Assembly (NCBI GenBank): GCA_004554775.1
Contig: SFKI01000010.1
Span: forward strand, 23,184 to 87,183
Length of the DNA: 64,000 bases
Direction of reading: 5' to 3'
From: Subdoligranulum variabile
Lineage (GTDB): Bacteria > Bacillota > Clostridia > Oscillospirales > Ruminococcaceae
Shown: positions 18,256-64,000 of the stretch, in pieces
Position numbering within the stretch: the first letter of the stretch is position 1
How the letters are laid out: each line of letters begins with the position of its first letter
Position numbers and translations under genes: made by a program
Notes under the pieces: model-generated
What the model saw: the letters and a program-made list of their open reading frames with translations, nothing else
Database searches by the model: none
What the model was told of the DNA's origin: nothing

Positions 18256-18269
18256 CGTAAAGCGGGGCA

Positions 18270-19274: not shown

Positions 19275-19400
19275 TGGGAACGCTCCTTTATTTGGCATAG
19301 GTATTAGTATACCACAATTTGCCGGGGATGGCTACAGCGTTTTGGGGGATGCTTGGCTGTGTGGGCCGATGCGTCGGCCCGCCGAAAGGAGCATGGTTTT

Positions 19401-19616: not shown

Positions 19617-19624
19617 GGGGGTGA

Positions 19625-19958: not shown

Positions 19959-19968
19959 GGAGCGCGAT

Positions 19969-20352: not shown

Positions 20353-20504
20353 GTGGGGGGCCTCCTATTTTATATGGTATATGGATAGAAAAAATGTATT
20401 GTTATTTTTTGTGGCAGCAGCGTGAGATTGTGCGGGCGAGCAATGCCCGCCCCTACGGGTTTCATTTAGTAGTATACCACTTCCTGCAAATGTGCACAAT
20501 GATA

Positions 20505-20533
20505 TTGCAATTTGCGGCAGGAACCGCTATAAT
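20505..20533 (+). promoter_or_regulatory. Sigma70-like promoter for the uracil permease gene
   Basis: TTGCAA (20505-20510), 17 nt spacer, TATAAT (20528-20533). The leader of about 115 nt has an imperfect hairpin plus a T7 run at about 20550-20588. Confidence 0.5.
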
Positions 20534-20652
20534 AATAAGGAAAGCGAGGGGGCAGGTGTTAAATACACAGCTGTTCCCTTTTTTTGCGGCCCATGCGCAC
20601 CGCGCCCGCTTTGCGGCTGGCACGCGGCGCCGCCAACTGACAGGAGGATGTC

Positions 20653-48593: not shown

Positions 48594-49222
48594 TGCCGGG
48601 CATTTTTACGGGCCGCGTGCAGATAAAATACCGCTATGGCCGCTACGGGTACACGCGCGGCGGCGGCAAGATCTGGCACGGCGGCATGGATATAGTCGGG
48701 TTGGATTCGACTGATATACGCATGCCGTATTATAAAGACAAGCGCATTGCCGGCACCGTGACCCGCGCGCGCCGCGTGACCGACCACAGCAGCAAAACGT
48801 GGGAATGGGGCTGGTACGTCTGCGTAAAACTGGACGCAAACCAGACGCCGGACGACGTGAATTTTTTGTACTTTTGTCACTGCCGCGAGCTGAAAGTGCA
48901 GCCGGGCGACCGCGTCGCCAGCGGCGATCTGCTGGCCGTGATGGGCCAAAGCGGCAACGCGGCGGGCGGCTACGACCACTGCCACCTGGAAGCACGCGCC
49001 ACGGCAAACGGCAAGGGGCTGGACCCCAGCCAGTACGCGGGCTGCCCCAATGCGGTGGGCGTGTACGGTGAGCAACCGAAAACAAACGATGAACCGATGA
49101 ATATGCAGCTTATCACGGTAGGCCCGGTGAGCCGCGGTGACGCCGACGCGGTCTACACGCTGTGCCGCAGCCGCGGGCTGGTGGACGCCGGTTTGTACAA
49201 AAGTGAATGGAGTGTTGGATAA
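48590..49222 (+). CDS. M23 family peptidase (phage endolysin candidate)
   Basis: HGGMD is the HxxxD motif and HCHLE is the HxH motif. The gene lies directly before the holin. Confidence 0.75.
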   Translation: MMPGIFTGRVQIKYRYGRYGYTRGGGKIWHGGMDIVGLDSTDIRMPYYKDKRIAGTVTRARRVTDHSSKTWEWGWYVCVKLDANQTPDDVNFLYFCHCRELKVQPGDRVASGDLLAVMGQSGNAAGGYDHCHLEARATANGKGLDPSQYAGCPNAVGVYGEQPKTNDEPMNMQLITVGPVSRGDADAVYTLCRSRGLVDAGLYKSEWSVG

Positions 49223-49665
49223 TGGAAAAGAAAAACGGGTTTTTGTACGCAAAAGCCGCCGTGGCCGCGCTGTGCGGGGCGTTTACGGCGGCGTTCGGCT
49301 GGTTGGGCTGGCTGGTGCTGGCCTGGGCGGTGTGCATGGCGCTGGACTGGCTTAGCGGCAGTGCGGCCGCCGCCAGCAAAGGGGAATGGTCCAGCGCCGC
49401 GGCGCGCGCGGGCATCTGGCACAAGGCGGGCATGGTGGTGGTCGTCTGCGTGGCGGCGCTGACAGACCTTGTTTTGTGCGTGGCTATGCAGAATTTGCCG
49501 GGATTTGATTTGGACGTTGATGGAGTGGTGCTGCCGGTGGTGCTGGTGTGGTACATTTTTACCGAGCTGGGCAGCATTGCCGAGAACGGCGCGGCAATGG
49601 GGGCACCGGTGCCGGGGTGGCTTTTGTCGCTTCTTGCAGAAGGCAAGGAGAAAGTTTCTAAATAG
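49222..49665 (+). CDS. Phage holin (toxin secretion/phage lysis holin family, TIGR01593-like)
   Basis: The product has multiple TM segments. The C-terminal motif IFTELGSIAENGAAMGAPVP is characteristic of this holin family. The start (TAATG) overlaps the lysin stop. Confidence 0.8.
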   Translation: MEKKNGFLYAKAAVAALCGAFTAAFGWLGWLVLAWAVCMALDWLSGSAAAASKGEWSSAAARAGIWHKAGMVVVVCVAALTDLVLCVAMQNLPGFDLDVDGVVLPVVLVWYIFTELGSIAENGAAMGAPVPGWLLSLLAEGKEKVSK

Positions 49666-50213: not shown

Positions 50214-50771
50214 TCAAAAATACTGTTCCAAATCCCGCTTGTCTGCCGAGCATTTCAGCGCGGCTTCTTTCGTGATCTGGCCGGCATCTACCAGCCGGGC
50301 CAGGTCGCCGTTCAGGCTGTGCATGCCAAGCGCGGCGCCGGATTGCAGCACGCTCGGGATCTGGAAGCACTTGTTCTCGCGGATGAGGTTGCACACCGCG
50401 TCGGTGCCTACCAAAACCTCGGTGGCGGCGCAGCGGCCGCGGCCGGTGGCAAGCGGCAGCAGCTGCTGGGTGATAACACCACGCAGCGTCGCCGAAATTT
50501 TCCCCTGCTGGTAAAACACGTTCACGCGGCTGCGGGTGCCGTCGGGCGCGGCGATGGCAAAATCCGCGTCCAGCCGGTGCAGATCCAGCGCTTCGCGGTG
50601 GGTTTCGTCCAGCGTGCTTTCGATCAGCGCTCAGGTCGCGTCGGCGTCAAACTGCACGGGTGCTTCCACCAGCACGCCGTCGATGCGGAACATCAGCGGC
50701 AGCCCCTGCGAAATGTGGATGTCGCTGGCGTTCCTCTGGCGGGCCAGCGCGGTCAGTTCGTGGATCTGCAT
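50214..50771 (-). pseudogene. pilT: pilT (twitching-motility ATPase) pseudogene: in-frame TGA plus internal deletion of the ATPase core
   Basis: The minus-strand ATG at 50771 gives MQIHELTALARQRNASDIHISQGLPLMFRIDGVLVEAPVQFDADAT, then TGA (50633-50631). The same frame continues ALIESTLDETHREALDLHRLDADFAIAAPDGTRSRVNVFYQQGKISATLR and joins directly to GVITQQLLPLATGRGRCAATEVLVGTDAVCNLIRENK... (the PilT C-terminus). No Walker A, Walker B, Asp box or His box segment is present. Confidence 0.85.
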
Positions 50772-50777
50772 ACGGGA

Positions 50778-52466
50778 TCACTCCTCATAATAGGTGATTT
50801 TCAGCAGCTCTTCGGGGGTGGTCACACCGCGCTGCACCAGCGCAACGGCGCTCTCCCGCAGGCTGCGCATACCCTGACTTTTACGCGCTGCAACGGTCAT
50901 TTCTTCCACGGTGGCTCCGTCCGCGATCATGCGGCGCAGCTCTTTGTTGATGACCACCATCTCATGGATGGCCACGCGGCCCTTGTAGCCGGTGCCGTTG
51001 CACTGCGGGCAGCCGGAGCCGCGCATGACAAACGGGACGCGCGGTCCAAGCAGCTCGGCTTCGGCCTCGGTCACGGGCATCTGCTTGGCGCAGGCCGGGC
51101 AGACGCGGCGCATCAGGCGCTGCGCCACCACACCGGCAAGGGAGTTGGCGATCATGTACCGCTCTACGCCCATGTCCTCCAAGCGGACGATCGACGATAG
51201 GGCGTCGTTTGTATGCAGGGTCGAGAACACCATGTGGCCCGTGATGGCCGCCCGCACAGAGATCGACGCGGTCTCGGCATCGCGCGTCTCGCCGACCATG
51301 ATGACGTCGGGGTCCTGGCGCAGCAGGGCGCGCAGGCCGCTTTCAAAGGTCAGGCCCGCCACGTTGTTTACCTGCGTCTGGTTGATGTGGTCGAGGTTGC
51401 GTTCGACAGGGTCCTCGATGGTCGAGACATTGACCTGCCGCTGCGCGATGGCTTGCAGCACCATGTACAGCGTGGTGGTCTTGCCGCTGCCGGTGGGGCC
51501 GGTCAGGTAGACGATGCCGTTGGGGCGGTCTAGCAGCGGCTTAAAGCGCGCGTAGGTCTCGTCGTCCATGCCGAAATGGTCGGCGTGCTCAATGCGGATG
51601 TTGGTGGCAAGCAGACGCAGCACGGCCTTTTCGCCGAACACGGTTGGTAAAATCGACACACGTACGTTGATATCCGGCCCGGTCTCAAGCCGCGCGCGGA
51701 AGTGCCCGTCCTGCGGGATGCGGTGCTCGGCGATGTCGAGGTTCGACATGATCTTGATGCGCGCGATCAGCGGCTGATGCAAAGCGCGCTGCAGCTGCAC
51801 GTAGTCGATGATGACACCGTCGATGCGCATGCGCACCTTCGTTTCGCCCTCGAACGGCTCGATGTGGATGTCCGAAGCGCCGGTGGTGGCCGCGCGCTGG
51901 ACCAGGCTGTTCAGCAGGCGGATGATGGGTGCGTCGGTATCGCCGCTCTCATCGGTCATGTCGATGGCAAATTCCTCTCTGCGTGCGGCGGCCATGTCGC
52001 TGCTGTTGGCCTTGCTGGCGGCCTTGCGGGCGCGCACCTCGGCGTAGTAATACTGGATGCTGCGGCGCAGGGGTTCCAGCTCGGCCAGCACGATCTCAGG
52101 CTCCAGGCTGGTCAGCTGGCGGATATCCTCGATGGCGTAGTAGTTCAGCGGGTCGTTGGCGGCAATGACCAGGCTGCGGCCGTTGACGGCGATGGGCAGC
52201 ATGTCGTACTTTTGCGCCAGCTCGTACGGGACCTTCTCAACGGCGGAAATATCGACGTTGATCTGTGCAAAATCAATCATCCGCAGCTGCAGGCGCTGGG
52301 CCAGGGCCTCCAGCACCTGGCGCTCGTTGACATAGCCAAGCTCTTGCAGCGCCTGGCCGACGCGCAGGTTTTTGTGCTCCTTCTGGTAGGCCAGGGCGGT
52401 TTGCAGCTGGTCGGGGGTGATGTAGCCGAAGTCGATCAGGACATCGCCAAGACGAATGTTATTCAA
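50778..52466 (-). CDS. pilB: Type IV pilus assembly ATPase PilB (GspE family)
   Basis: The N-terminal T2SSE_N-like region is LGDVLIDFGYITPDQLQTALAYQKE...LGYVNERQVLEALA. GPTGSGKTTTLY is Walker A. A tetracysteine motif (CPACAK...CPQCNGTGYKGR) is present. Confidence 0.93.
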   Translation of the reverse strand: MNNIRLGDVLIDFGYITPDQLQTALAYQKEHKNLRVGQALQELGYVNERQVLEALAQRLQLRMIDFAQINVDISAVEKVPYELAQKYDMLPIAVNGRSLVIAANDPLNYYAIEDIRQLTSLEPEIVLAELEPLRRSIQYYYAEVRARKAASKANSSDMAAARREEFAIDMTDESGDTDAPIIRLLNSLVQRAATTGASDIHIEPFEGETKVRMRIDGVIIDYVQLQRALHQPLIARIKIMSNLDIAEHRIPQDGHFRARLETGPDINVRVSILPTVFGEKAVLRLLATNIRIEHADHFGMDDETYARFKPLLDRPNGIVYLTGPTGSGKTTTLYMVLQAIAQRQVNVSTIEDPVERNLDHINQTQVNNVAGLTFESGLRALLRQDPDVIMVGETRDAETASISVRAAITGHMVFSTLHTNDALSSIVRLEDMGVERYMIANSLAGVVAQRLMRRVCPACAKQMPVTEAEAELLGPRVPFVMRGSGCPQCNGTGYKGRVAIHEMVVINKELRRMIADGATVEEMTVAARKSQGMRSLRESAVALVQRGVTTPEELLKITYYEE

Positions 52467-53188
52467 GATACCACACTCTCCTTATCGCAGAGGATGACGC
52501 TGAGCTGCACGGTAAAGGTGGCCGTGCCGGTGGTGGTGCCGCTTGCATCGGTGTAGGCGGCGTGGTCGATCTGGACGCTGCGCAGCTGCACCGACGGGTA
52601 CTGCCCGGCGAGGTCGTCGAGCATCGCGTAAAAGTCACTGTCGCTGCCCGTGCAGCGGAAGGTGACGGTGCAGGCTTTAAAGTAGTCGGCATTCGCGTAG
52701 ACGCGGGTCAGCGGCGGGGCCAGCTCCATCAGCACCGCGTTGGTGTCGGCGGTGGCAAGCGTCGGGTCTGAGGAGTCGATCTCGCCGGGCGCGGCGGTGT
52801 CCTCGGCCTTATCGCTGGCGGCGTAGCCGGTCAGGCTCTGGGTGTTGATGCTGCTGATCTCCAGCGAGAGCGGCGCAAGGTTGTGCCCGAGCTCCAGGTT
52901 GGAGACCAGCGTGTCAAGGTCGCTGCTGGAAAGCAGGCCGTAGTAGCTGGCGTTGGCCTGCTGCAAGGCGGCCCAGCTCTCGGTTTTGGCGGCGGCGTTG
53001 GTGCCGGACAGCGCGATGGTATCCTGCATGGCGATCTGCGCCTGCTGGGCATCGGCGAGGTCGGCGGCGGCCTGGTCGCTGGCCGACAGCGCGGGCATGA
53101 GCATGAATTGCACAAAAAAGAAGATAAAAGCAAACATACCTACGACATAAAGCAGCAGCTTGTCGCGGGCGGTGATCTCGGTAGTCAT
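52463..53188 (-). CDS. pilO: PilO-like pilus assembly protein
   Basis: An N-terminal TM segment (LLLYVVGMFAFIFFFVQFMLMP) is followed by a coiled region. The gene lies between the pilN-like gene and pilB and overlaps the pilB start. Confidence 0.55.
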   Translation of the reverse strand: MTTEITARDKLLLYVVGMFAFIFFFVQFMLMPALSASDQAAADLADAQQAQIAMQDTIALSGTNAAAKTESWAALQQANASYYGLLSSSDLDTLVSNLELGHNLAPLSLEISSINTQSLTGYAASDKAEDTAAPGEIDSSDPTLATADTNAVLMELAPPLTRVYANADYFKACTVTFRCTGSDSDFYAMLDDLAGQYPSVQLRSVQIDHAAYTDASGTTTGTATFTVQLSVILCDKESVVS

Positions 53189-53203: not shown

Positions 53204-53794
53204 TTATTCCGGTGCGGCCAGCACGCAGCGCAGGTTCAGCGCATAGCCTGCGGGCTCGCCCTGATTGTTGGTGGACTGATAGCCGGTGTAGTCCACGCCG
53301 GAAAAGACGCCGCAGCTTTGCAGCGCGCGCACGTAGGTGGGGATGTCGATGACGGTGTCCGACGTGGCGTTGAATTGCAGCACGCCGGTGGCGGCATCGT
53401 AGCTGGTGAACTCGACCGTGATGCCGCTGGACGACCCGGCAGCGTCGATGCGGTTGAGCAGGCTGCTGGTCAGATCGGGGTAGCTGTCCAGCAAAGCCGA
53501 GACGCCGTTGGCGTAGTCCGCCAGGCTATGGTAGGTATCAGCGGCCTGCTGATCCTGCAAGGATTGCTGATAGGGCGTCAGATTTTGCTCATCGGCGCAC
53601 CAGGCGCGCAGGTCGCTGGCCTGCCCGCGCATCAGCGCCGTATGCACGACCACGCCGCCCCACGCCAGCAGGCACCCCGCCACGATGATAATGCCCGGCG
53701 CGGCCTTGCGCAAAAACGCATTGCGCGCCGAAGTTTTCCCGGCCTTAGCGGCCTGCTGGTATTGCAGATAAAAGTTGTTTTGTTTTGTTGCCAT
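53204..53794 (-). CDS. pilN: PilN-like pilus assembly protein
   Basis: A short cytoplasmic N-terminus is followed by one TM segment (PGIIIVAGCLLAWGGVVV) and a periplasmic-type domain. The gene lies after the pilM-like gene. Confidence 0.55.
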   Translation of the reverse strand: MATKQNNFYLQYQQAAKAGKTSARNAFLRKAAPGIIIVAGCLLAWGGVVVHTALMRGQASDLRAWCADEQNLTPYQQSLQDQQAADTYHSLADYANGVSALLDSYPDLTSSLLNRIDAAGSSSGITVEFTSYDAATGVLQFNATSDTVIDIPTYVRALQSCGVFSGVDYTGYQSTNNQGEPAGYALNLRCVLAAPE

Positions 53795-53995: not shown

Positions 53996-54889
53996 TTATC
54001 GCCCAATCAAGTTGCCTGCGGCCAACGCCACATCGGCCAGCTTCACCCCTTCGGGCAGCTTCACATTCACCGTCTCGGGGTACTCTGCGGCATCCAGCCG
54101 CAAAGCCTGGCAGGCGGGTGTGCAGGCAGCCAAATCGGCGGGGGTGCTGCCGCCGAAATAGACCGCCGTGATGGGGTGCTCGCTCTTGGCGGCAGTCTGG
54201 AACTGGATCAGGCCCGAAAGCTTCTGCCCGATCTCGGTGCCGGATGCCTGGGTCCCGCGGGGGTTAAACAACCGGCTGCGGGTCGAGTATTTGTATTGGC
54301 CTTCTTCGTAAAGCCCTGCAATCAACGAATCACCGTCAAATTGCAGCACAACAAAGCTCTGCTTTGCCAGGGCGGGGGTGGCACCCACCAGCTTGATCTG
54401 CCCGGCCAGCGCCAGGTCGATGCTGTGCAGTTTCAGCCCGCAGGCCGTGGCCAGATGGATGTAATTTTCGATGACCGCGCTCTCCACGCGGGTGGCCAGC
54501 ACGGTGTCGGCCTTGGACTTTTTGTCGGTGGAAAGCAGCATATAGTCGTCCAGCGGGGCGGTCACGTCGGCGCCGCCGCTGGAAAGCTCCCGCGTCAGCA
54601 CCGCCGCGCGCTTTTTCTCGTTCATGCGGGGCAGCGTCAGCACGCGATGGTTGAACTGGCTGCCGCCCGCCGCCAGCGCCACACGCTGGGTGGGCAGACT
54701 GTTGGCCGCAAAAAAGCCTTGCAGCGCGGCGGTCAACTCGCCCTCGTTGGTGATGATGCCGTTGATCAGGCAGCCCTCGGGCAGCTCGGTCTGGCACGCC
54801 GCCGTGAGCCTGGCCCCATTGGCCGCCGGCACCCCCACCGCCGCATACACGGTACGGTTGCAAAGATAAAGCGAGGTTAAAACGGGCAT
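53996..54889 (-). CDS. pilM: PilM-like (actin-like ATPase fold) pilus assembly protein
   Basis: 297 aa. Position is upstream of the pilN/O-like genes and downstream of pilC. The N-terminal region has weak PilM-like features. Confidence 0.55.
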   Translation of the reverse strand: MPVLTSLYLCNRTVYAAVGVPAANGARLTAACQTELPEGCLINGIITNEGELTAALQGFFAANSLPTQRVALAAGGSQFNHRVLTLPRMNEKKRAAVLTRELSSGGADVTAPLDDYMLLSTDKKSKADTVLATRVESAVIENYIHLATACGLKLHSIDLALAGQIKLVGATPALAKQSFVVLQFDGDSLIAGLYEEGQYKYSTRSRLFNPRGTQASGTEIGQKLSGLIQFQTAAKSEHPITAVYFGGSTPADLAACTPACQALRLDAAEYPETVNVKLPEGVKLADVALAAGNLIGR

Positions 54890-55012: not shown

Positions 55013-56224
55013 TCAAATCGCCCCGCTGGCTCCGCCGATGGTGCCGTACGATTGATAGATCGGCAAAATGACCGCTACAACGACAAACGCGACCACAATG
55101 CCCATCAGGATGATCATGGCGGGCTCCAGCAGCGTGACCAGGCGCTTGGTGGCGACTTCAGCTTCAAAATCCAGCGTTTCGCTGATGGTGGCAAGCAGGT
55201 CGTCCAGCTTGCCGGTCTCCTCGCCGACCGCGATCGACGACGCCATCGTCTGCTCAAACCCGTCCACCTGCGCCAAGGATTCCGAAAGGCTGCTGCCCGC
55301 GCGGACATTGTCCAGCACTTCGTCAAACTGGCTGATGATCCACCGGTTGCCCACGGCGTCGCGGCTGGCGATCAGCGTTGCCACGATGGGCACGCCGCTG
55401 GAATACAGGTTCGAGAGGGTCCGCGCGAAGCGGGCCGTGCAAATTTTGCGATTCAGTTTGCCGATGACCGGCGCGTGCAGCTGCAAGCGGTCCCACTGGC
55501 GGCGGATGGCGGGCTGCGCCAGCGCAATGCGCCAGCCGACCACCAAAAACGCGAGGACCAAAAGCAGCGGCACCCAGTTTGCACTGATAAAGTCTGATAC
55601 AGCGAATAAAATTGCCGTTGGCAGCGGCAGCGCTTCCATCTGCTCAAACATCGGCATGAACTGCGGCACCACAAAGCCCATCAAAATGGCAATGACCGCC
55701 ACGATCATTACCGACAAAATGATCGGGTACATCAGGCTGTTGCCGACCTGCTGGTTGACTTTATGTTCGCGGTCGTAGTAGCGGCCCATGCGCAAAAAAC
55801 TTGCGTCGATGCTGCCGGTGCCCTCGGCGCTGCGGGTCGTGGCGATCAGCAGCTCCGGGAATGCGGGCGCACACCTGTGCATTGCGTCGGACAGCGGCAC
55901 GCCCTTGCGCAGCTCTTTTAATAAGGTAGTGTACAGCAGCTTGCTACGGGCGTTCAGGCCGCGCTCGTCCGCCATAATGCGGAATGCACGCACCAGCGGC
56001 ACACCGGCCGAAAGCAGCGTGCCCAGGCTGCGGCAAAACTCGGCCAGCTCGGGCGTTTTCAGCGGGCGGTAAACACTGGCGGCCGGGCCGATCTCCTTGG
56101 CGTCGGTCATGTACAGGTTCTGGTCCCGCAGGGTGGTATACAGCGCTTCGGCACTGGCGGCCTCGCTGACCCCGTGCAGGGTCCTGCCCGACAGCGCCGT
56201 GGCTGTGTAGCGGTAACGCGGCAT
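55013..56224 (-). CDS. pilC: Type IV pilus platform protein PilC (T2SS F family)
   Basis: Two T2SSF repeats are present (...LSAGVPLVRAF... and ...LYSSGVPIVATL...) with 3 TM regions. The start was taken at MPRYRYTATAL. Confidence 0.9.
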   Translation of the reverse strand: MPRYRYTATALSGRTLHGVSEAASAEALYTTLRDQNLYMTDAKEIGPAASVYRPLKTPELAEFCRSLGTLLSAGVPLVRAFRIMADERGLNARSKLLYTTLLKELRKGVPLSDAMHRCAPAFPELLIATTRSAEGTGSIDASFLRMGRYYDREHKVNQQVGNSLMYPIILSVMIVAVIAILMGFVVPQFMPMFEQMEALPLPTAILFAVSDFISANWVPLLLVLAFLVVGWRIALAQPAIRRQWDRLQLHAPVIGKLNRKICTARFARTLSNLYSSGVPIVATLIASRDAVGNRWIISQFDEVLDNVRAGSSLSESLAQVDGFEQTMASSIAVGEETGKLDDLLATISETLDFEAEVATKRLVTLLEPAMIILMGIVVAFVVVAVILPIYQSYGTIGGASGAI

Positions 56225-56252: not shown

Positions 56253-57047
56253 TTATAAAAATCGGCAGTACCACGCAAGCACGGGCTCGCCGAAGAGCAG
56301 CGCCAGCACAATGCCGGCGCAGAGGAACGGTCCAAAAGCAAAGTGGTCTTTTTTGTCGGCTTTGTGTGCGGCCAGCAGGTAAATGCCATAAAAACCGCCG
56401 CCCAAAATGCCGAAAAACATCGCCAGCAGCGTGTGCTGCCAGCCCAAAAAAAGCCCGGCTGCCGCCATCAGTTTGATGTCCCCGCCGCCGAACGCGCCGG
56501 GGATCGCCAGGCAGAGCAGCAGCATCGGCACGCTGACGCACAGTGCGCCGACCACGCACCCGCCCCACCGGGCAGGGGAGAGCAGCAGCTCGACCACTGC
56601 CAGCACGGCCACCGCCGCGTTTAAGCGGTTGGGGATGAGCTGCGTTTCGGCGTCGATGAGCGCGATGCTGAGCAGCACGCCGCAGAGCGCCAGTGCCGCC
56701 AGCCCCTGCCACCGGATGCCGAACAGCCCGTCCGCCAGCGCGTACGCCGCGCCGAACCGCCAGCGGCAGCCCAGCGCCAGCACGCCGCCGAGCAGCTCCA
56801 CGGCCAGGTAGCGCGCCGGAATGCGCGCGCCGCAGTGGCGGCACCGCCCGTGAAGAGCCAGCCAGCTGAACACCGGCACAAGGTCGGCAGCGGTCAACGT
56901 GGCACCGCACTGCGGGCAAAAGCTGCGGCCTGTCAACGGATTTTTGCCGCGCGGCAGCCGCCAGGCGACAACGTTCATAAAGCTGAAAAGCGCCGCACCC
57001 AACAAAAACGCGATGAGCGCCAGCAGGGCCTGCGCGGCCAGCATCAC
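56253..57047 (-). CDS. pilD: Prepilin peptidase / N-methyltransferase (A24 family)
   Basis: The N-terminal Cys motifs are CPQCGATL...CRHCGARI. The protein is multi-TM with GGGDIKLMAAAG (catalytic Asp region). Confidence 0.9.
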   Translation of the reverse strand: MMLAAQALLALIAFLLGAALFSFMNVVAWRLPRGKNPLTGRSFCPQCGATLTAADLVPVFSWLALHGRCRHCGARIPARYLAVELLGGVLALGCRWRFGAAYALADGLFGIRWQGLAALALCGVLLSIALIDAETQLIPNRLNAAVAVLAVVELLLSPARWGGCVVGALCVSVPMLLLCLAIPGAFGGGDIKLMAAAGLFLGWQHTLLAMFFGILGGGFYGIYLLAAHKADKKDHFAFGPFLCAGIVLALLFGEPVLAWYCRFL

Positions 57048-57274
57048 GGGTTCACCCCGCTGTCAAAGCGGAGCCGCGGCTGGTCCTGCAGCCCACGGGC
57101 CTTTGCGCCGATACGATCCGACAGCATCCCGCCGCCCCCCCTTCTCTGGATTTTTACACAAATTAAAGTATACTGTAACCAGCGACATTTTGCAAGGAAA
57201 TTCGACAAGAAAGCACGATGATATTGTAACAGTGCGTGCCCCTGCGGCGGGGGCGCGCAAGCAGTATATTTTCC

Positions 57275-57303
57275 TTGCAACTTCGGAATCGTTATACTAT
57301 AAT
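57275..57303 (+). promoter_or_regulatory. Strong sigma70-like promoter for the giant pilin gene
   Basis: TTGCAA (57275-57280), 17 nt spacer, TATAAT (57298-57303). This leaves a leader of about 115 nt before the ATG at 57423. Confidence 0.55.
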
Positions 57304-57422
57304 AAACCCATCTATGTTGGAGAATTGCGTCGATTTCCGTCGAGAGCGGGGAGCGGCTTTGCATAGCAACGAACGAAGAGGTAACAAATGTGCTGCCTAT
57401 TATAAAGGAAGTTAAACAAAAA

Positions 57423-60400
57423 ATGCGCGCGGCCGGGGGCTTTACGCTGGTGGAGCTGATGGTCGTGCTGGTCATTCTGGCCATTCTGGCGGGGCTCGGC
57501 GGGGCCGGGCTGATCGCCTATACCCGCCTGGCGCGGTTTGAGCATAACGAGGCCAACGCCCGCACCGTTTTCCAGACGGCGCAGATCGCCCTGACCCGCA
57601 AGGACACCGGCGGCGATATGGACGATTTTCTCAAGCAATTGGCCGCAAACGGCACCCAGAACGGCCACTTTACCGCCGAAGGCCTGCAAGCGCAGTACCC
57701 CACCGGCGCCGAGGATAAGGCCAAGGAGCTGAATGGCCGCATCGTGGCGCTGTACTACGACAAGGACGCCCCCGATACCGCCGCCAGCCAGCAGGTACAC
57801 GCCCTGCTCGACCCGTATGTTTACGACGAGTCGCTTTTTAACGCGTCCATCGTGCTGGAGATCGACAGCCTGACCGGACAGGTATACTCTGCTTTTTACG
57901 ACACAGCATCGGCAAAAATGCGCTTTTCTGCCGACGGGGACACCGACGGCGCGACCCTTGTTGACGACCGCAGCTACACCCACCGCCGCGAAGCTTCGCT
58001 GGTGGGCTACTACTCAGCCGAGGATACCGTCAACGTCGTCACCCTGAGCCAGACCCGCCTGAAGGTCAAGAATCCGCAGCTCATCAACAACGAGACCCTC
58101 ACCTTGAACTGGAGCGGCAACAGCCGGTATAACGACCTGGACACCATCTACGACGCCGAATTTTACAGCACCACAAGCGGCGATACCCCACTGCTCAAGC
58201 TGGAAATTGAATGGAGTAAAGTTGCAGGCTACGACCAGAACGCCCGCATCAAGGTCTACAAGCAGTACAATGCGGCCACCCAGACCTGGACGGACAGCGG
58301 CGAGACCTACTGCTTCCCGCTCAGCTACAGCAAGGGCCGTTTTATCCTGACGCTGGACGCCATGTGCGACGCCACGTTACTGCGCGCGGCGGAAAATGAC
58401 CAGACCGCAGCCAAGACGACGCTGTTCAGCATAACGCGGCTGGTCAGCGGCGCGCAGGATATCTATGTCAAGATGAAAGCACGCCCCAACGATGCTTTTG
58501 CAGATGCCTGCACCGAGAGCAAGGAGGCGCAGTCCAACACCGAGAACACCCTGTTTGCCGCGGGCAGCACAGGAACCAACGCTGCACTGAAATATTTCCG
58601 CCACCTGTACAACCTGCGCTGGGTCAACAGCGGCACCTATACATGGAATGACGGCACGTTGCCCCCCAACGCCGCGACCACGCTGGACTGGACCGACGGC
58701 AGCGTGACCGTCTACTGCGCGGGGGAGAAAAAGAACGAATCCGGGCTGACCGAACCCGTCGCCAAGGTGCCCAGCCGCACCGGCGAGGTCGTAGCCTGGC
58801 CGACCATCCCCGCCGTGGGCGAAAACGTCACCCTGACCGGCAGTGTGAACAGCCTAAAAATTGGCGGGGGCCACGTCATCATCAGCAACCTGCAGCTGCG
58901 CGGCACTTCGGTCGCGGCGCAGGAGCGCAGCAGCGGGCTGGACTACCGCAAGCGGGATCACTATGTGGGCCTGATTGGAGAAAACAGCGGTACACTGTCT
59001 AAAATCACCCTGCGCGACCCCGATGTGCAGGTCAATGCCGAGGTCGTGGCAAACGGTCAACAGCTGCCCGATGCCATGCCGATCGACGCGGACGGCACCC
59101 GGTATTTGCAGCCGCTTGCCGAGAAAGACACGGCCTACCGCGCACAAATTTACGCGGTGGGTGCGCTGGCCGGTGTGGATACCGGCAGCGTGACCGACTG
59201 CACGGTCGACCGCAGCCGCCGCCGCGGGGCCGAGGCCAAGGTCACGGCGGCGCTGACGTTTGGCAGCCAAACCACCAGCACCGCCCGCATAAACGGAACC
59301 AACATTACAGACGAGCCGCACGGCATGGGCGGGCTCGTCGGCTTTGCCATGCCTGCCGGCGGGGCGGCGCTCAGCGACCTGACGCTGGACAAAAACGTCA
59401 CCGTCGCGGGCCTGTTTACCGATGCCGATGCTGCCAAAAACAGCGGCGCTACGGCCAAAATCAGCACGGATGCAGCTGAAAAAGCACGCTATAACGCTAT
59501 TACGGATACGACCGCCACAAAAACGCTTTGGCGCGCTGTCGGCGTGGGCGGCGTGGCCGGTGTGCTGGACGTCACCAACCTGACGGGCACGAACGGCGCG
59601 GTGAGCACCCTGACCGGCATCACCAACCAGGCCACCGTGGTGGGCAACGGCTTTGCGGGCGGCATTGCGGGCAACCTGTACGCGACCGGCGACCGACCCG
59701 CCACCCTGACCAAGCTGAACAACGCGGGCACGGTGCGGGCAGGGGCCAACTACCAGGGCGGCACGGCACAAAAAAGCACGGTGCTGGGCCAGTTCTTTGG
59801 CGGCATTGCGGGCTGTGCCAGCAACCTGCAGCTGCAAAGCTGCACCAGCGCTACCCGCAGCGGCCTGAGCACTGCCGCCCTGACCAGCCTGGTGCGGGCG
59901 GGCTACGATGCGGACGGTACGCTGAACGAGGAAAGCCCCCTGAAAGGCGATTTCGTCGGCGGTCTGGTCGGCTTTGGCCGCGATATCGCCCTGACTGACT
60001 GCCGCACCGAGTCCGGCCATGTGCTGGGCCGCAGCTTTGTGGGCGGCTTTGTTGGCGGCTTTGTGGGCAGCGACCTGCAAACGTCCGGCGGCGAGAACAA
60101 CAGCTATGTGTTCGGCAACCGCTATGTGGGCGGCATTGTCTCGGTCAACGGCAAAAACAGCACGATCAAAAACATGACCAACAAGGGCCTTGTGGCGGGC
60201 TTGGGCAAAGGTGCCGCCTACGTGGGCGGCATCGCAGGCGTCAACGATGCGACCTGGGGCTTGCTGGAAAACGACGAACTGACGAGAAAAATTGCCGCGA
60301 CCCTGCAGGACAGCGCCAACAGCATGTCCACCGTCGAAGCGACCGATAAAAACCGCATCGACCTGCTGAACCAGCTCAGCCAGACCGCGGACGGCACGGA

Positions 60401-63400
60401 GTACTATGCCGATTTTGTCGGCGGCGTGGCGGGCTACAACGGCACCAACGCAAAGATCCTTTGGACGGCAGAGTCCGAAAACGGCGCGACGCTGGGCGCG
60501 GTGCTGTACGGCAACAATTTTGTCGGCGGCGTGGCGGGCTGCAACGCCCCCACGGCGTCCATTGTAAACGAACATACCACCACCCCCAACGTGACCGGCA
60601 CCATTGTGGCGACCGGTGACTGCGTGGGCGGCGCCATCGGCCTGAACGGCGCGGCCAGCCTGCCCGCCGTGCAGGTCAGCGCCAACAAAATGGAGGGCGT
60701 CCACTTTGTGGGCGGCGTTATCGGCGCGAACCTGCCGCAAAATCGTTTCGGGTTTGACAACGCGGACGGCACCGCAGCCCCGGCGGCTACCATCGGCACG
60801 GGCAGTCTGGTTGCTGACGGCGTCGCGGGCGGCATCATCGGCTACAACCGCGTGGTGCCGGACAACACCCTGCAAACCGCGCTGGCAGCTGAAAATACGG
60901 CCATCGCCGATGCACTGCGCGCGCTGCTGCCGACGTTTGACGACACCACCCACGCGCTTGCAGAGGACGGGCTGACCTCGGCGGGCACCCCGGTTACGCT
61001 GACGAGGCTGAGCAACCGGCTCAACATCAAGGCAAACGCCTACGTGGGCGGCATCATCGGCTACAACGCGGCGGGAACCAGCCTTACCCTGACCAACGCC
61101 GTCAACGGCAGCCAAAGCAGCGCCCAGTCTTACGGCGGCCTGGCCCGCAGCGACCCGGCGGACGCGGCCAACGGCGGCGCGTACATTTTCTATAACGGCG
61201 TCCCGCTGGGCGCGCTTGACCCGGGCTGCAGCGGCTACTTTGCGGGCGGGATCATCGGCTATGCGACGAAAAATACGACGCTGCAAAACTGCACCAACTA
61301 CGGCAGCGTGCAGCACCCCGTGGCGGCAGGCGGCCTGGCGGGCGTCAACGATGGCACGATCTCCGGCGGCAGCATGCAAAATTCCATGGGCAGCCAGCAG
61401 GAGAACTACCGCTATCTCGGCGGCATCGCGGGTATCAACAACGGCAGCATCACCAATGCGGCCCCGGCGGCGGGCGTTACCATCCGCGGCGGCACGAACA
61501 TCGGCGGTGCGGCGGGGTATAATACCGGCACCATCCGCCTGACCGAAGCCACCGGCAGGGTCGATGGCATCACCGCCGTCGGCGGCGTGGCGGGGTATAA
61601 TGTGGGCACGATTGTTGGCAATGGCGTGGGCAGCAAGGCTGCTGTCCAGGTCAGCGGCACCAGCCAGGTCGGCGGTATAGCGGGCGTGAATGGTACAACG
61701 GGTCGAATCAGTACCAGAAGCATAGACGAAAAAATCACCCTTACCAGCGCGACCAGCGTGACTGCCAACAACGAGGGCGGCGGTGCAGCAGGCCGCAACG
61801 AGGGAACGATCTGCAATGTCACCAACGAGGCGGGCCGCGTCCATGTTGATAACCAGTACATGGGCGGTCTGGCGGGCCGCAACTACGGGACTATTGAGGA
61901 CAGCAACTATTATAATAACAGCACATCCACCGATACGCTGTATGCGGGCGGCGGTTACGCAGGCGGCATTACCGGCTGCAACGAGGCCGGGGCCACGATA
62001 GATTCCGTGGGCATCGGCGGTCATGTGACTGCTGCTAACGGCGAGGCTGGCGGCGTCACGGCTCACAACTATGGACATATCAACCGCGCTGCTTTGCTGC
62101 ACGTTTACGTTCACAGTACGTCCAGCGCCATTGGCGGCGTTGCCGCAGTCAACGAGTACGCCCCCGATGCCACCAGAAATCCGCAGGATGCTGTCATTGA
62201 GGACGTTACCCTGCGCAGTGATGACTACGGCGTGACCCTGTACGGCCCGGCTACCAAGGTGGGCGGCTTGGTCGGCTACAACGCAGGTACGGTCAAAAAC
62301 GGCAAGGTTGAAGCAAAAACCCTCGATTTCTCCCACCTGACCGCCACCGCCAACACCGTAACGGCGGGCGGCGCCGTGGGCGAGAACGTCGGCACTGTCG
62401 GCGCGGTTACGGTCGAAACCGACCTGACCCAAAACATGGACAAATATTGCAGCCTGGGCGGCGTTGTCGGCAGTAACAGCGGTGCTCTGGTTCAGTGTAC
62501 CTATCAGGGCGCCATCGGGGACGGCAGCGGCATCAACGTCGTCGGCAGCACGGTCGGCGGCATCGCGGGCAGCAACAACGGTACCGTGCAGGGCTGCACG
62601 GTCAACCACATTACGCTGCACGTGCAGGGCGCGTCCAACGTGGGCGCCAGCCAGGACGCTGCCACCAAGATGGCAAACGCCGCGCACATCGGCGGCATCG
62701 TGGGCCGCAACAGCGGCAAGTTCGAAAACAGCCTGATCGCCACCGACAGCACCCGCAGCACGATCACCGCGCATGGCGGCTTTGTGGGCGGCGTGGCAGG
62801 CTCCAACAGCGGCAGCATCACCACCAGCGGCGGCAAGGATACGAAGGCCCTCGTGCAGCAAATCAACGACTGGCTGGCCGTGCCCTATAAAAAGGATGCA
62901 GACGGCACCACCACCACCGAGGTGGATACCGCCGCCCGGAACGCCAACCTGAACGCCATGGTCCGCGTGCTGACCAACGCCACCTACACCGGGGATGCCG
63001 GCAGCAAGCCGCAGGCCACCCAGAGCGCCGACGAAGCTGCACTGGTGACGAAGTTCAAGGCCCTGCAGGGCGTGGATGAAGTCTCCAAGAGCAACACCAA
63101 AAACCAGCTGAAAATCACGCTGAAAGGCGGGGATACCCGGGGCAGCTTTGCCAACGGCTACCTGGGCGGCATTACCGGCTTTAACGATGTAACGGGACAA
63201 ATCTCCGACAGCGCCAGCGGCCAGTGGTTTGTCTACGCTGACAATATCAACCAAAGCTGGGGCGCCGTGGGCGGCATCATCGGCCAGAACGAATCCAACG
63301 CCGACTCCACCAGCGGCCTTGTCAACCTTGCTGCCGTGCGCCGGTTTGTGCGCGGTACCCAAAACACCCCCGACGACGACACCAACGCTAGCAACGACCG

Positions 63401-64000
63401 CTATTCCACCACAAACTTCGACCTTTCGGCCAATAACTATGTGGGCGGCGTCATTGGTACGCAGCAGAACCGCACCGGCGATTTGTGGACGCTGAAAAAC
63501 TGTGTCAACCTTGGTACGGTGTTCAACAGCCGTTCCAATAACGTGGGCGGCGTGCTGGCCTACTGGCTGGGCTACGGCGGTACGCTGGATAACTGCTTCA
63601 ACTTTGGCACTATTGCTACCAACTCCAATAACGGTAAAGACTCCGGCACCGTCGGTGGTGTGGCGGGTTATTTCAACAGCCCGGTTGCCGGTACTGCGGT
63701 CAATCTGTACAAATGCCGGAACTACGGCAGCGTGCGCATCGTGACCAATGGTGCCAACGATGTTGGCGGTATCTTTGGCAAGGTGCAGATGCAAAAGAAA
63801 GACGATGCCATGACCATCAACATTGTTGAGTGCGCCACCGGTTCCAATGTGAAACTGCGCGCAAACAGCATGGCCGTCGGTATTTTCTCTTATATTGGCC
63901 CGTATGAGGTCATCCCCAATGTCGAAGTCAATATTGACCGCTGCCGCAACTATTGCTATAACTTGGATTGTGGTAATATCACGGCAGGTATCTTCGGCAA
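57423..64000 (+). CDS. Giant modular type IV pilin-like protein: prepilin N-terminus fused to more than 2000 aa of GLUG-like repeats (3' end beyond window)
   Basis: ATG at 57423. The N-terminus is MRAAGG/FTLVELMVVLVILAILAGLGGAGLIAY (G-1, F+1, E+5). The frame stays open to 64000 (2192 codons). I translated 57960-58920 and 63780-64000 codon by codon and found no stops. The ORF is absent from the track because it has no stop. Repeats are of the form xVGG(I/L/F/V)(A/V)Gxxx-G-x-(I/V). Confidence 0.85.
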   Translation, partial: MRAAGGFTLVELMVVLVILAILAGLGGAGLIAYTRLARFEHNEANARTVFQTAQIALTRKDTGGDMDDFLKQLAANGTQNGHFTAEGLQAQYPTGAEDKAKELNGRIVALYYDKDAPDTAASQQVHALLDPYVYDESLFNASIVLEIDSLTGQVYSAFYDTASAKMRFSADGDTDGATLVDDRSYTHRREASLVGYYSAEDTVNVVTLSQTRLKVKNPQLINNETLTLNWSGNSRYNDLDTIYDAEFYSTTSGDTPLLKLEIEWSKVAGYDQNARIKVYKQYNAATQTWTDSGETYCFPLSYSKGRFILTLDAMCDATLLRAAENDQTAAKTTLFSITRLVSGAQDIYVKMKARPNDAFADACTESKEAQSNTENTLFAAGSTGTNAALKYFRHLYNLRWVNSGTYTWNDGTLPPNAATTLDWTDGSVTVYCAGEKKNESGLTEPVAKVPSRTGEVVAWPTIPAVGENVTLTGSVNSLKIGGGHVIISNLQLRGTSVAAQERSSGLDYRKRDHYVGLIGENSGTLSKITLRDPDVQVNAEVVANGQQLPDAMPIDADGTRYLQPLAEKDTAYRAQIYAVGALAGVDTGSVTDCTVDRSRRRGAEAKVTAALTFGSQTTSTARINGTNITDEPHGMGGLVGFAMPAGGAALSDLTLDKNVTVAGLFTDADAAKNSGATAKISTDAAEKARYNAITDTTATKTLWRAVGVGGVAGVLDVTNLTGTNGAVSTLTGITNQATVVGNGFAGGIAGNLYATGDRPATLTKLNNAGTVRAGANYQGGTAQKSTVLGQFFGGIAGCASNLQLQSCTSATRSGLSTAALTSLVRAGYDADGTLNEESPLKGDFVGGLVGFGRDIALTDCRTESGHVLGRSFVGGFVGGFVGSDLQTSGGENNSYVFGNRYVGGIVSVNGKNSTIKNMTNKGLVAGLGKGAAYVGGIAGVNDATWGLLENDELTRKIAATLQDSANSMSTVEATDKNRIDLLNQLSQTADGTEYYADFVGGVAGYNGTNAKILWTAESENGATLGAVLYGNNFVGGVAGCNAPTASIVNEHTTTPNVTGTIVATGDCVGGAIGLNGAASLPAVQVSANKMEGVHFVGGVIGANLPQNRFGFDNADGTAAPAATIGTGSLVADGVAGGIIGYNRVVPDNTLQTALAAENTAIADALRALLPTFDDTTHALAEDGLTSAGTPVTLTRLSNRLNIKANAYVGGIIGYNAAGTSLTLTNAVNGSQSSAQSYGGLARSDPADAANGGAYIFYNGVPLGALDPGCSGYFAGGIIGYATKNTTLQNCTNYGSVQHPVAAGGLAGVNDGTISGGSMQNSMGSQQENYRYLGGIAGINNGSITNAAPAAGVTIRGGTNIGGAAGYNTGTIRLTEATGRVDGITAVGGVAGYNVGTIVGNGVGSKAAVQVSGTSQVGGIAGVNGTTGRISTRSIDEKITLTSATSVTANNEGGGAAGRNEGTICNVTNEAGRVHVDNQYMGGLAGRNYGTIEDSNYYNNSTSTDTLYAGGGYAGGITGCNEAGATIDSVGIGGHVTAANGEAGGVTAHNYGHINRAALLHVYVHSTSSAIGGVAAVNEYAPDATRNPQDAVIEDVTLRSDDYGVTLYGPATKVGGLVGYNAGTVKNGKVEAKTLDFSHLTATANTVTAGGAVGENVGTVGAVTVETDLTQNMDKYCSLGGVVGSNSGALVQCTYQGAIGDGSGINVVGSTVGGIAGSNNGTVQGCTVNHITLHVQGASNVGASQDAATKMANAAHIGGIVGRNSGKFENSLIATDSTRSTITAHGGFVGGVAGSNSGSITTSGGKDTKALVQQINDWLAVPYKKDADGTTTTEVDTAARNANLNAMVRVLTNATYTGDAGSKPQATQSADEAALVTKFKALQGVDEVSKSNTKNQLKITLKGGDTRGSFANGYLGGITGFNDVTGQISDSASGQWFVYADNINQSWGAVGGIIGQNESNADSTSGLVNLAAVRRFVRGTQNTPDDDTNASNDRYSTTNFDLSANNYVGGVIGTQQNRTGDLWTLKNCVNLGTVFNSRSNNVGGVLAYWLGYGGTLDNCFNFGTIATNSNNGKDSGTVGGVAGYFNSPVAGTAVNLYKCRNYGSVRIVTNGANDVGGIFGKVQMQKKDDAMTINIVECATGSNVKLRANSMAVGIFSYIGPYEVIPNVEVNIDRCRNYCYNLDCGNITAGIFG

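Follow-up and report, generated by a model that had tools for sequence, protein, structure and literature searches.

The window analysed here, a stretch of 64,000 nucleotides, contains the 5' 61% of a gene whose product is probably a giant modular type IV minor pilin that serves as an adhesin in a pilus tip complex; this reading was reached from synteny and sequence only. In this reading, the alpha1-N helix would insert the protein in the membrane, the long C-terminal part would be translocated outside, and the leader would be removed by PilD. The pilin module would assemble with three neighbouring minor pilins, one without Glu5 as in cap subunits, into the tip (priming) complex on which the pilus is then built. 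Since the giant pilin keeps Glu5, it is not the cap subunit itself. Everything after the pilin module would extend outward at the pilus tip to make a long stalk for adhesion, with Ig-like domains, approximately 36 GLUG-like units whose probable form is an elongated beta-rich rod, and a C-terminal region of approximately 1,350 aa. In a monoderm, no outer-membrane secretin would limit the size of such a tip module.

Reading frame, translation start and full length

The features of the giant gene and its upstream region are as follows.

57390..64000, + strand: giant pilin gene, 5' 61% (open frame; colinear alignment to L003, L004, P0123 and L005; dN/dS 0.34-0.41)
57390..57440, + strand: class III (prepilin) leader peptide MLPIIKEVKQKMRAAGG (PF07963 and TIGR02532 above cut-off; start conserved in relatives)
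57441..58022, + strand: pilin module with hydrophobic alpha1-N carrying Glu5, long alpha1, and alpha/beta head (AlphaFold2; family profile; dN/dS)
58065..59042, + strand: two predicted beta-rich domains, an Ig-like beta-sandwich at approximately aa 215-360 and a second beta domain at approximately aa 386-540 (AlphaFold2, Foldseek)
59322..63734, + strand: approximately 36 degenerate GLUG-like units (h-h-G-G-h-h-G-x-N...), modal period 28 aa (motif positions; Pfam Glug)
57275..57303, + strand: sigma-70-like promoter match TTGCAA-17-TATAAT (10/12 matches; pattern match only)
57167..57195, - strand: divergent promoter-like match TTGCAA-17-TATACT, facing the pil machinery genes (pattern match)

The plus-strand frame from 57423 to 64000 has no stop and contains 2,192 codons, as the first-pass annotation of this DNA had reported. 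The same frame reaches upstream to a GTG at 57390 (2,203 codons, still open at the window end), and the in-frame stop upstream of the gene is at 57303-57305. The annotation had placed the start at the ATG at 57423; this codon is probably internal and the GTG the true start, because close relatives begin MLPIIKE[VI]KQK, the L003 protein has Leu at the position of the window's internal Met, and an AAGAGG motif lies 8 nt upstream of the GTG. The giant-gene frame has a third-position GC of 0.79 vs 0.85 in pilB, and the 1,646-aa antisense ORF is a shadow ORF, as had been proposed, since its GC peaks at position 1. The dN/dS of the window gene against its relatives is 0.34-0.41 overall, and is below 1 by a clear margin in every segment.

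The gene is uninterrupted in four independent short-read assemblies, where it encodes proteins of 3,553 aa (L003), 3,589 aa (L004), 3,608 aa (L005), and 3,620 aa (P0123) that are colinear with all 2,192 window residues and 67-88% identical. No frameshift or stop separates a short pilin from a repeat gene in any of the four, and on these alignments the giant gene is not a fusion artefact. The full protein is approximately 3,600 aa, and its mature form is approximately 379 kDa and acidic. The earlier remark that its size is far beyond that of modular pilins known at approximately 50 kDa was made from the open frame in the window; it is correct, and the real protein is a larger variant still.

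Prepilin signal and predicted pilin module

The class III signal seen at the N-terminus in the first reading is detected by two models above their curated cut-offs: PF07963 (28.4 bits vs 21.2) and TIGR02532 (24.1 bits vs 16.3). The predicted PilD cleavage is after Gly (57438-57440) and before the Phe at 57441, which separates the leader MLPIIKEVKQKMRAAGG from FTLVE. The module that follows is predicted to be a pilin-type alpha1 helix with a small alpha/beta head. An AlphaFold2 model (m8b876a9bde08; 560 residues, 36 diverse sequences, mean pLDDT 84) has alpha1 at residues 9-63, then helices and four beta-strands to approximately residue 200, with block pLDDT of 75-95 across the pilin module. 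When the first 218 profile positions were searched against PDB sequences, all named significant matches were type IV pilins or pseudopilins, with E down to 1.6e-11; these include 9egp (1.6e-11), Streptococcus sanguinis PilE1 8pfb (4e-10 over 78 residues), and 3sok (over 111 residues). A Foldseek search of the whole 560-residue model against the PDB returned Ig-like matches only and no pilin, so the evidence for a pilin fold beyond alpha1 is the secondary structure of the model.

Ig-like domains, repeats and C-terminal region

The best Foldseek match of the two beta-rich domains to the PDB is Ig-like (E = 4e-3). Beyond them, 36 non-overlapping units of the form xxGG[IVLAFT][IVLATS][GAS] are found at aa 634-2104, with a modal spacing of 28 aa. 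Asn occurs at +8 in 25 of the 36 units; the full N-x-G-x-[IVL] motif and Cys, both said earlier to follow "usually", each occur in only 11, or about a third. TRF finds just three tiny arrays in the repeat DNA, and since the repeats are this degenerate at the DNA level, assembly collapse is unlikely. The likeness to GLUG that had been proposed appears weak but real from profile matches: Pfam Glug scores 26.8 bits on aa 1001-1500 (cut-off 20.5) and 17.3 and 13.0 bits on two other pieces of the protein, and is not reported for the whole window protein at E<=0.01. Thirteen of the 36 single units match Glug at E<=0.1, while every other family is matched by at most one unit. The C-terminal region of approximately 1,350 aa has no Pfam domain above cut-off, and there is no sign of another mode of anchoring: LPxTG is present in the last 60 residues of none of 136 long family members.

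Assembly genes and promoters

The first-pass annotation had described a divergent pil cluster behind a near-consensus promoter. Both are found, the promoter as a pattern match; two promoter-like sites are present where 0.3 are expected in shuffles. The genes of the cluster are given below.

57044..57127, - strand: 27-codon remnant MLSDRIGAKARGLQDQPRLRFDSGVNP of an internally deleted gene for a small membrane protein (aligned to the 175-aa L005 protein)
56253..57047, - strand: pilD, prepilin peptidase (A24_N_bact 101.8 bits, Peptidase_A24 62.3 bits)
55013..56224, - strand: pilC, platform protein, 403 aa by homology (T2SSF 179.3 bits; full-length match to L002 PilC); the ORF itself runs on to 56389
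53996..54889, - strand: pilM-like gene (full-length match to the L002 297-aa gene; TIGR01175 pilM only sub-threshold)
53204..53794, - strand: pilN-like gene (match to the L002 189-aa gene; GspL C-terminal match weak, sub-threshold)
52463..53188, - strand: pilO-like gene (T2SSM 24.5 bits, below the 27.8 cut-off; match to the L002 261-aa gene)
50778..52466, - strand: pilB, extension ATPase (T2SSE 422.5 bits, MshEN 53.6 bits)
50217..50771, - strand: pilT pseudogene with an in-frame stop; only PilT residues 1-97 and approximately 245-349 are left

The pilD gene is intact and is 343 nt from the giant gene, on the opposite strand. The small gene that precedes pilD in relatives encodes 159-175 aa and is weakly GspM-like (below cut-off). 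Because this gene is deleted in the window and pilT is a pseudogene, the machinery of this strain may be partly decayed.

Family and gene order

By profile match, the protein is one of a large family found in gut Clostridia. At E<=1e-30, a profile built from the N-terminal 560 aa matches 221 cluster representatives, and most of the complete ones are 2,900-4,045 aa; one 90%-identity cluster has 879 members, and the named members are from Gemmiger and Lachnospiraceae (Faecalicatena). Among the best 150 matches, 82 reach 2,000 aa or more; the pilin segment, with its G|FTLxE prepilin motif, is kept in 70 of the 82. Of the long members without the motif, those checked either are gene calls that lack the true N-terminus or have variants such as A at -1. 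A literature search found no paper on the giant pilin family, for which databases give a generic name only. The most extreme multi-domain case highlighted in a 2021 InterPro survey of modular pilins is a protein of 860 residues (PMC8179133).

Three small pilin-like genes, one without Glu5, come after the giant gene in every locus examined, and pilD, pilC, pilMNO, and pilB lie beside it, with pilT also present in most loci. Lineages that are 24-35% identical have the order giant gene, 183-286-aa pilin-like gene without Glu5, 104-129-aa pilin, and 200-265-aa pilin. L002 and L005 have the same three genes 3' of the giant gene, and L003 and L004 have the first of them, after which the sequence ends. 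The three products resemble GspK, GspI/ComGF, and PilV/GspH, all below curated cut-offs. A PilY1-like non-pilin adhesin gene was not seen.

Comparison with known systems

The S. sanguinis modular pilins PilB (vWA module) and PilC (lectin module) are adhesins located in the tip complex (PMC10191384, PMC8179133). Like the giant pilin, they are found in a monoderm, start with a class III signal (Gly-1, Glu5), and are encoded in a pil locus (PMC8179133, PMC9934059); in all of them, non-pilin modules are grafted on after a small pilin module. However, PilB is approximately 50 kDa with one grafted domain, while the giant pilin of approximately 379 kDa has Ig-like domains, approximately 36 GLUG-like units, and a tail of approximately 1,350 aa. 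No sequence similarity is seen beyond alpha1, and the adhesin role of the giant pilin is predicted.

In other systems, the four HIJK minor pilins form a tip complex that is capped by a subunit without Glu5 and primes assembly (PMC10191384, PMC8179133). The giant-gene loci resemble PilHIJK/GspHIJK (PMC10191384) in having four consecutive pilin-like genes conserved as a set beside the assembly machinery; the 183-286-aa product without Glu5 is like GspK/PilK, and the 104-129-aa product is very small, like the I subunit. They differ in that the matches to the GspK, GspI, and PilV/GspH models are below curated cut-offs and in that one of the four members is enlarged approximately 20-fold. PilC/PilY1 of diderm type IVa pili is also a large modular adhesin shown at the tip through the minor-pilin complex, which is the logic proposed here; however, PilY1 is not a pilin and docks non-covalently, while the giant protein would be carrier pilin and effector in one polypeptide. 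PilY1 is about 1,000-1,500 aa. It has a C-terminal beta-propeller (PMC8179133), and none was detected in the giant pilin.

GLUG proteins (PF07581), including M26 surface proteins of Firmicutes, have the G-G-h-h-G-x-N signature in common with the giant pilin, but the latter does not have the M26 catalytic domain, and it has far more repeats, with greater degeneracy. The combination of pilin and GLUG is already on record as a database architecture: IPR012902-IPR011493 had six InterPro proteins in 2021, listed without lengths and none of them studied there (PMC8179133 supplement). Omnitrophota also have very large putative adhesion proteins encoded beside T2SS/T4P-like machinery, and small genes with class III signal peptides lie close by (bioRxiv 10.1101/2023.11.21.568195). 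These proteins are far larger and belong to another phylum, of diderms with a proposed predatory lifestyle; they are not described there as pilin-led, and their N-terminal regions generally have no identifiable domains, although some have C39/S8 peptidase domains.

Alternative explanations

The first-pass annotation had offered two mechanisms, a tip mega-adhesin and export of a surface protein by the prepilin pathway. They are not fully separable by computation; the tip complex is favoured because the giant gene and the Glu5-less, small, and mid-sized pilins are conserved together in such distant lineages. A possible but rather unlikely alternative is a pilin-anchored surface fibre with no long pilus. 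Its class III signal and alpha1-N helix would then act mainly as a PilD-processed membrane anchor, or the four pilin-like proteins would assemble just a short pseudopilus, as in type II secretion, by which the giant protein would be driven across the cell wall and kept at the surface. In Sulfolobus, sugar-binding proteins that are not filament subunits likewise have class III signals, and a stalk of approximately 3,400 residues could span the cell wall alone. Gemmiger-type loci (the window and L001-L005) have no major pilin gene nearby, with one prepilin motif in the whole 64-kb window and no such pilin called around L001-L005; however, the Gemmiger major pilin may be encoded elsewhere in the genome. 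Retraction appears dispensable, because the window and L003 have lost pilT or keep it only in decayed form, yet the distant L006, L007, and L008 have a 140-151-aa canonical major pilin together with PilD, PilC, PilMN, PilO, PilB, and PilT in the operon of the giant gene. The pilin module is also far more constrained than the rest of the protein (dN/dS 0.04 vs L005), which fits subunit-subunit packing rather than a plain anchor.

That the protein is instead an IgA1-protease (M26)-type or other hydrolase, exported by its prepilin signal and with the GLUG units as an accessory region, is very improbable. GLUG motifs are typical of IgA1-protease-type proteins, and the 2021 survey discussed the possibility that the pilin-IPR011493 architecture is an M26-type peptidase (PMC8179133). 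Against PDB sequences, the repeat profile reaches a single entry, 3n6z, a "putative immunoglobulin A1 protease", but the match is not significant (E 1.2). Neither the window protein nor any of six pieces spanning the full-length L003 ortholog has a Pfam match to a peptidase or other catalytic domain, even at E<=1, and the C-terminal 1,353 residues have no match among PDB sequences. Least probable of all, and already largely refuted by the assemblies compared here, is that a sequencing error joins a short pilin to a repeat gene or that the gene is a decaying pseudogene. The L002 ortholog has one frameshift near residue 735, the L001 ortholog is broken by at least 12 frame changes, and many database entries of the family are fragments of less than 1,000 aa, some with out-of-frame tails. 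However, several of the short entries stop at contig ends or in Nextera adapter sequence, and the window frame is colinear with its relatives across the site of the L002 frameshift. The one-frame genes of the four short-read assemblies are joined by those of dozens of distant members of the family, and selection against amino acid change is evident in every segment of the gene.

Start and leader of the giant gene

The gene considered here extends beyond the end of the window and occupies the following positions:

57390 to 64000, plus strand: giant pilin gene, prepilin signal followed by GLUG-like repeats, open at the window end

Inspection of the plus-strand frame found 2,192 codons without a stop from 57423 to the window end. 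The first-pass annotation had described this open frame correctly, but its choice of the ATG at 57423 as the start does not appear to hold. The frame remains open upstream until an in-frame stop at 57303-57305, and this extension contains a GTG at 57390. The GTG is probably the likelier start, because close relatives have the N-terminus MLPIIKE[VI]KQK, a 70%-identical ortholog from a Gemmiger-type relative (L003) has Leu at the position of the proposed Met, and an AAGAGG motif lies at a suitable distance, 8 nt before the GTG. The mature protein is identical whichever start is used. From GTG 57390 the leader is MLPIIKEVKQKMRAAGG and the next residues are FTLVELMVVLVILAILAGL. The predicted cleavage region reads ...KQKMRAAGG before the cleavage point and FTLVELMVVLVILAILAGLGGAGLIAY after it, giving a short basic leader, Gly at -1, Glu at +5, and a hydrophobic run of about 20 residues; across a family alignment of 23 sequences, neither G6 nor E11 varies.

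The proposed class III prepilin signal was recovered above curated thresholds by both PF07963 (28.4 bits, cut-off 21.2) and TIGR02532 (24.1 bits, cut-off 16.3), and PF07963 scores 28.6 bits on the L003 ortholog. By these models the protein carries the type IV pilin signal (IPR012902), with leader cleavage predicted. Codon-position GC places the coding sequence on the plus frame (third-position GC is 0.79 for the giant gene and 0.85 for pilB), and the GC peak of a 1,646-aa antisense ORF falls on its codon position 1, so the antisense ORF is a shadow, as had been supposed. A c-di-GMP riboswitch is located upstream of Clostridioides difficile pilA1; a search for this or another riboswitch found nothing, Rfam giving no hit at gathering score anywhere in the window, nor any within 57000-57480 at E<=1.

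Integrity, size and selection

A frameshift or split gene, with a short pilin separate from a repeat protein, had been named as a point to check. Single ORFs of 3,553 aa (L003) and 3,589 aa (L004) are present on SPAdes contigs of species-representative genomes, the ORF of a third Gemmiger-type relative (L005, MEGAHIT contig) has 3,608 aa, and the cluster representative P0123 has 3,620 aa. All four are uninterrupted and align with window residues 1-2192 without rearrangement at 67-88% identity, which identifies one gene. Judged from these colinear full-length relatives, the whole gene is about 10.8 kb long, of which the window holds about 61%, and its mature product has a mass of about 379 kDa and a pI of 4.8. 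Since the repeats are degenerate at the DNA level, repeat collapse cannot account for the open frame. A short gene in relatives was considered and rejected: a search with the first 560 aa gave only entries under 1,000 aa, those checked were contig-end fragments, frameshifted calls, or ends in Nextera adapter, and an exhaustive search of cluster representatives recovered full-length family proteins.

The dN/dS of the giant gene against relatives is 0.34-0.41 over the whole alignment, that of the pilin module against the closest relative (L005) is 0.04, and that of the pil machinery genes is 0.10-0.19. These values indicate a gene that is constrained yet faster-evolving than its neighbours, as are exposed surface proteins. 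Between the window and L005, dS is 0.21 in the giant gene (segments up to 0.34) and 0.06-0.08 in the adjacent pilC and pilD; this several-fold higher dS suggests that the giant gene has undergone recombination or is mosaic.

Modular structure and GLUG-like repeats

The N-terminal 560 residues were modelled with AlphaFold2 from 36 diverse family members (mean pLDDT 84). An earlier model from 22 closely related sequences had a pLDDT of 50 and meaningless Foldseek matches, and was discarded. The retained model has an alpha1 helix (9-63), a helix-rich loop, and strands at 107-112, 142-148, 154-160, and 195-198, with pLDDT of 75-95 in this block, followed by an Ig-like beta-sandwich at about 215-360 and a further beta domain at about 386-540. 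As modelled, the stretch up to about residue 200 is pilin-like. When a profile of the first 218 positions was compared with all PDB sequences, every named significant match was a type IV pilin or pseudopilin, mostly over alpha1, including geopilin (1.6e-11), S. sanguinis PilE1 (4e-10 over 78 residues), and Dichelobacter FimA (over 111 residues). Foldseek with the whole 560-residue model retrieved only Ig-like matches (E about 4e-3) and no pilin, so support for the pilin-head fold comes from the model, and no independent fold match backs it. The protein thus has a modular layout, with a pilin module at about aa 1-200, the Ig-like sandwich, GLUG-like repeats, and a long C-terminal region. This layout makes it a modular pilin in the sense of Raynaud et al. 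2021 (PMC8179133), where an N-terminal pilin module is joined to at least one module that is not specific to pilus biology.

The repeats comprise 36 non-overlapping h-h-G-G-h-h-G units between residues 634 and 2104, most commonly spaced 28 residues apart. They are of the kind first described, but the N-x-G-x-I/V and Cys said usually to follow are less frequent than claimed: Asn occurs at +8 in 25 of the 36 units, the full N-x-G-x-[IVL] in 11, and Cys also in 11. The GLUG assignment itself stands. Glug (PF07581; GLUG is, we assume, also IPR011493) reaches 26.8 bits against a cut-off of 20.5 on the piece covering aa 1001-1500, with the same score for the L003 ortholog, and 13 of 36 single units match Glug while no other family is matched by more than one unit. 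The resemblance, judged by profile scores, is weak but specific, weak because Glug is not listed for the whole 2,192-aa protein at E<=0.01 and falls below the cut-off on the other pieces. PDB sequence searches with the repeat region and with a repeat-unit profile gave nothing significant.

Family and distribution

With the N-terminal profile and a threshold of E<=1e-30, 221 representatives of clusters built at 50% identity were retrieved. Among the best 150 representatives, 82 have at least 2,000 aa, most of these 2,900-4,045 aa. The first-pass annotation had asked whether homologs keep the pilin segment; G-[FY]-T-[LM]-x-E is found near the N-terminus in 70 of these 82, and those of the other long members that were inspected are either truncated gene calls or carry a variant motif, for example A at -1. 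Most members have 26-39 GGxxG motifs, one has 51, and a subgroup has 10-16. Named sources are Gemmiger formicilis, Gemmiger sp., Lachnospiraceae MAGs, and Faecalicatena (WP_346907752.1, 2,927 aa). Public assemblies contribute 879 members to a single 90%-identity cluster, and many of these are intact at 3,257-3,265 aa. LPxTG is absent from the last 60 residues of all 136 family members of at least 2,000 aa, so by this motif the family would not belong to the sortase-anchored (LPXTG) surface adhesins.

The pil locus and its pilin-like genes

As had been reported, the giant gene is divergent from pilD, pilC, three PilM/N/O-like genes, and pilB on the opposite strand, and pattern matching found promoter-like sites in both directions within the 343-nt spacer between the pilD side and the giant gene. 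A prepilin peptidase and assembly machinery (ATPase, platform, PilMNO) are co-encoded in the window and in all eight relative loci, five Gemmiger-type (L001-L005) and three distant and Lachnospiraceae-type (L006 from Faecalicatena, L007 from a Hadza gut sample, and L008). Two of the genes on this side of the window are remnants:

50217-50771, minus strand: pilT pseudogene, PilT residues 1-97 and about 245-349 left, in-frame stop
57044-57127, minus strand: remnant of the small membrane protein gene before pilD, 27 codons, internal deletion

The internal deletion in pilT removes about 150 aa covering the ATPase core. The gene is intact in L001, L002, and L004 and absent from L003 (2943-3092); PilT seems to have been lost repeatedly in the Gemmiger-type lineage, and its decay or loss in the window lineage implies that retraction is dispensable there. 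In relatives, the small gene before pilD encodes 159-175 aa and is weakly GspM-like. Between this small gene and the giant gene, L005 carries an additional 1.1 kb or so of GC-rich DNA (4364-5488, corresponding to window 57216-57268) that is absent from the window; it contains no credible ORF, and similar peptide motifs recurring across its mechanical ORF translations hint at internal repetition. Just past the pilT end of the cluster are M23 peptidase and phage-type holin genes (window 48590-49665, plus strand). The holin is Phage_holin_4_1 in relatives, with the same layout in L001 and L002 and ORFs of matching size in L003.

Three further pilin-like genes follow the giant gene in relatives, at a place that lies beyond the window end.

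Pilin-like genes downstream of the giant gene in relatives
First gene: 272-286 aa (183 in L006, 220 in L008), no Glu at +5
Second gene: 104-129 aa, Glu5
Third gene: 200-265 aa, Glu5

Residue +5 of the first product is L, M, V, or I (L002, L003, L005, L006, L007, L008). The order is complete in L002 and L005, and the sequences of L003 and L004 end after the first gene. The same order occurs in the three distant loci, where N-termini are only 24-35% identical. The four-gene pilin set, with one subunit lacking Glu5, resembles the HIJK type in composition; NCBIfam matches to the downstream pilins are sub-threshold only (GspK 15.9 bits, cut-off 130; XpsI 20.6, cut-off 150; PilV 22.1, cut-off 52.2). 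In the distant loci the operon with the giant gene also encodes a major pilin, a small gene of about 150 aa, PilD, PilC, fused PilMN, PilO, PilB, and PilT. The major pilin genes are:

L006, 20527-20949; L007, 21873-22295; L008, 1667-2122: canonical major pilin, 140-151 aa (KKGFTLVELIVV...)

No major pilin gene is found near the giant gene in the Gemmiger-type loci, so in Gemmiger-type genomes it has been lost or is encoded at another site; across the 64 kb of the window, a prepilin motif occurs in the giant gene alone. In L005 the three minor pilin genes are followed by a Trans_reg_C and BTAD regulator (18607-19812) and then a glycosyltransferase cluster, possible candidates for regulating or glycosylating the pilus system.

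Possible roles and comparison with known systems

In characterized systems, four minor pilins including a cap without Glu5 form a tip complex that primes type IV filament assembly (PMC10191384), and the modular adhesive pilins of S. sanguinis sit in such a complex (PMC10191384, PMC8179133). A place for the giant pilin in the tip complex is favoured here, mainly because of the conserved gene order. The same locus also contains features that would fit a system producing only a short stub, or merely anchoring the giant protein: the missing major pilin in Gemmiger-type loci, dispensable retraction, to judge from a pilT that is a pseudogene in the window and absent from L003, and a small gene before pilD reduced to 27 codons in the window. 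This is the main competing explanation, and we consider it rather improbable. An enzyme of the IgA1-protease type is argued against by the want of a catalytic domain, as Pfam scans of the window protein and the full-length L003 ortholog found no M26 catalytic or other peptidase domain and the C-terminal 1,353 aa gave nothing significant against PDB sequences.

Extending the tip-complex reading to the whole family, there is in our judgement an even chance that these proteins form an undescribed 'mega-pilin' class common to gut Clostridia (Oscillospiraceae such as Gemmiger and Lachnospiraceae such as Faecalicatena), in which tip subunits of 2,900-4,000 residues, with a stalk of beta-rod repeats and Ig-like domains, would serve abundant human commensals as a major and rapidly evolving adhesin for colonisation. 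Type IV pilins are typically small, about 15 kDa; if this proposal is true, monoderm type IV pilus machinery can assemble a subunit about 25 times the normal pilin size. Questions are then raised about translocation, membrane extraction, passage through the wall, and how large a cargo the tip complex tolerates without a secretin. As carriers include very abundant human gut commensals and the gene evolves faster than its neighbours, the giant pilin is a candidate for determining attachment to mucosa or particles and niche differences between strains.

The nearest known counterparts are PilB and PilC of S. sanguinis, modular pilins of about 50 kDa compared with about 379 kDa here, while PilY1, a non-pilin tip adhesin, is a functional counterpart. 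PilB is 50.5 kDa, and the giant pilin is far outside the sizes described with it (PMC8179133). The 50-kDa modular pilins were offered in 2021 as an explanation for the versatility of simple filaments, and the accompanying InterPro survey found more than 1,200 modular pilins, with a pilin-IPR011493 architecture in six proteins and 860 residues in the most extreme multi-domain case highlighted (PMC8179133). A conserved pilin-led family of about 380 kDa takes the modular-pilin idea to an extreme. In Omnitrophota too, giant genes adjoin T2SS-like loci, but that work does not present the giant proteins as pilin-led (bioRxiv 10.1101/2023.11.21.568195).

Representation in public databases

The giant pilin is an extreme version of known modular pilins whose family is already in databases, always under a generic annotation, either 'prepilin-type N-terminal cleavage/methylation domain-containing protein' or 'type II secretion system protein'; full-text literature searches found no published description of giant pilins or of the family. 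Because the genes are routinely truncated in short-read metagenome assemblies, frameshifted in some possibly long-read contigs, and generically annotated, they are systematically under-counted. Two ENA contigs (278-301 kb, possibly long-read) have frameshifts in the gene, one near residue 735 in L002 and at least 12 in L001. The L001 copy (10001-20600, 278-kb contig) may be a pseudogene, since about 8 kb of upstream pil genes are intact, or consensus errors may have accumulated in the region. The gene calls P0073, P0082, and P0109 end in translated Nextera adapter (...CLLYTSPSPRD, ...LSLIHI), so untrimmed adapters at contig ends create false C-termini in the family. The one family member with an LPxTG end is the fragment P0042 (620 aa, 3.6-kb ENA contig), whose pilin N-terminal domain, about 590 aa long, runs directly into a classic sortase signal made up of ELPKTG, a hydrophobic stretch, and RMRASK; this is probably a chimera, but may be a real short wall-anchored variant.
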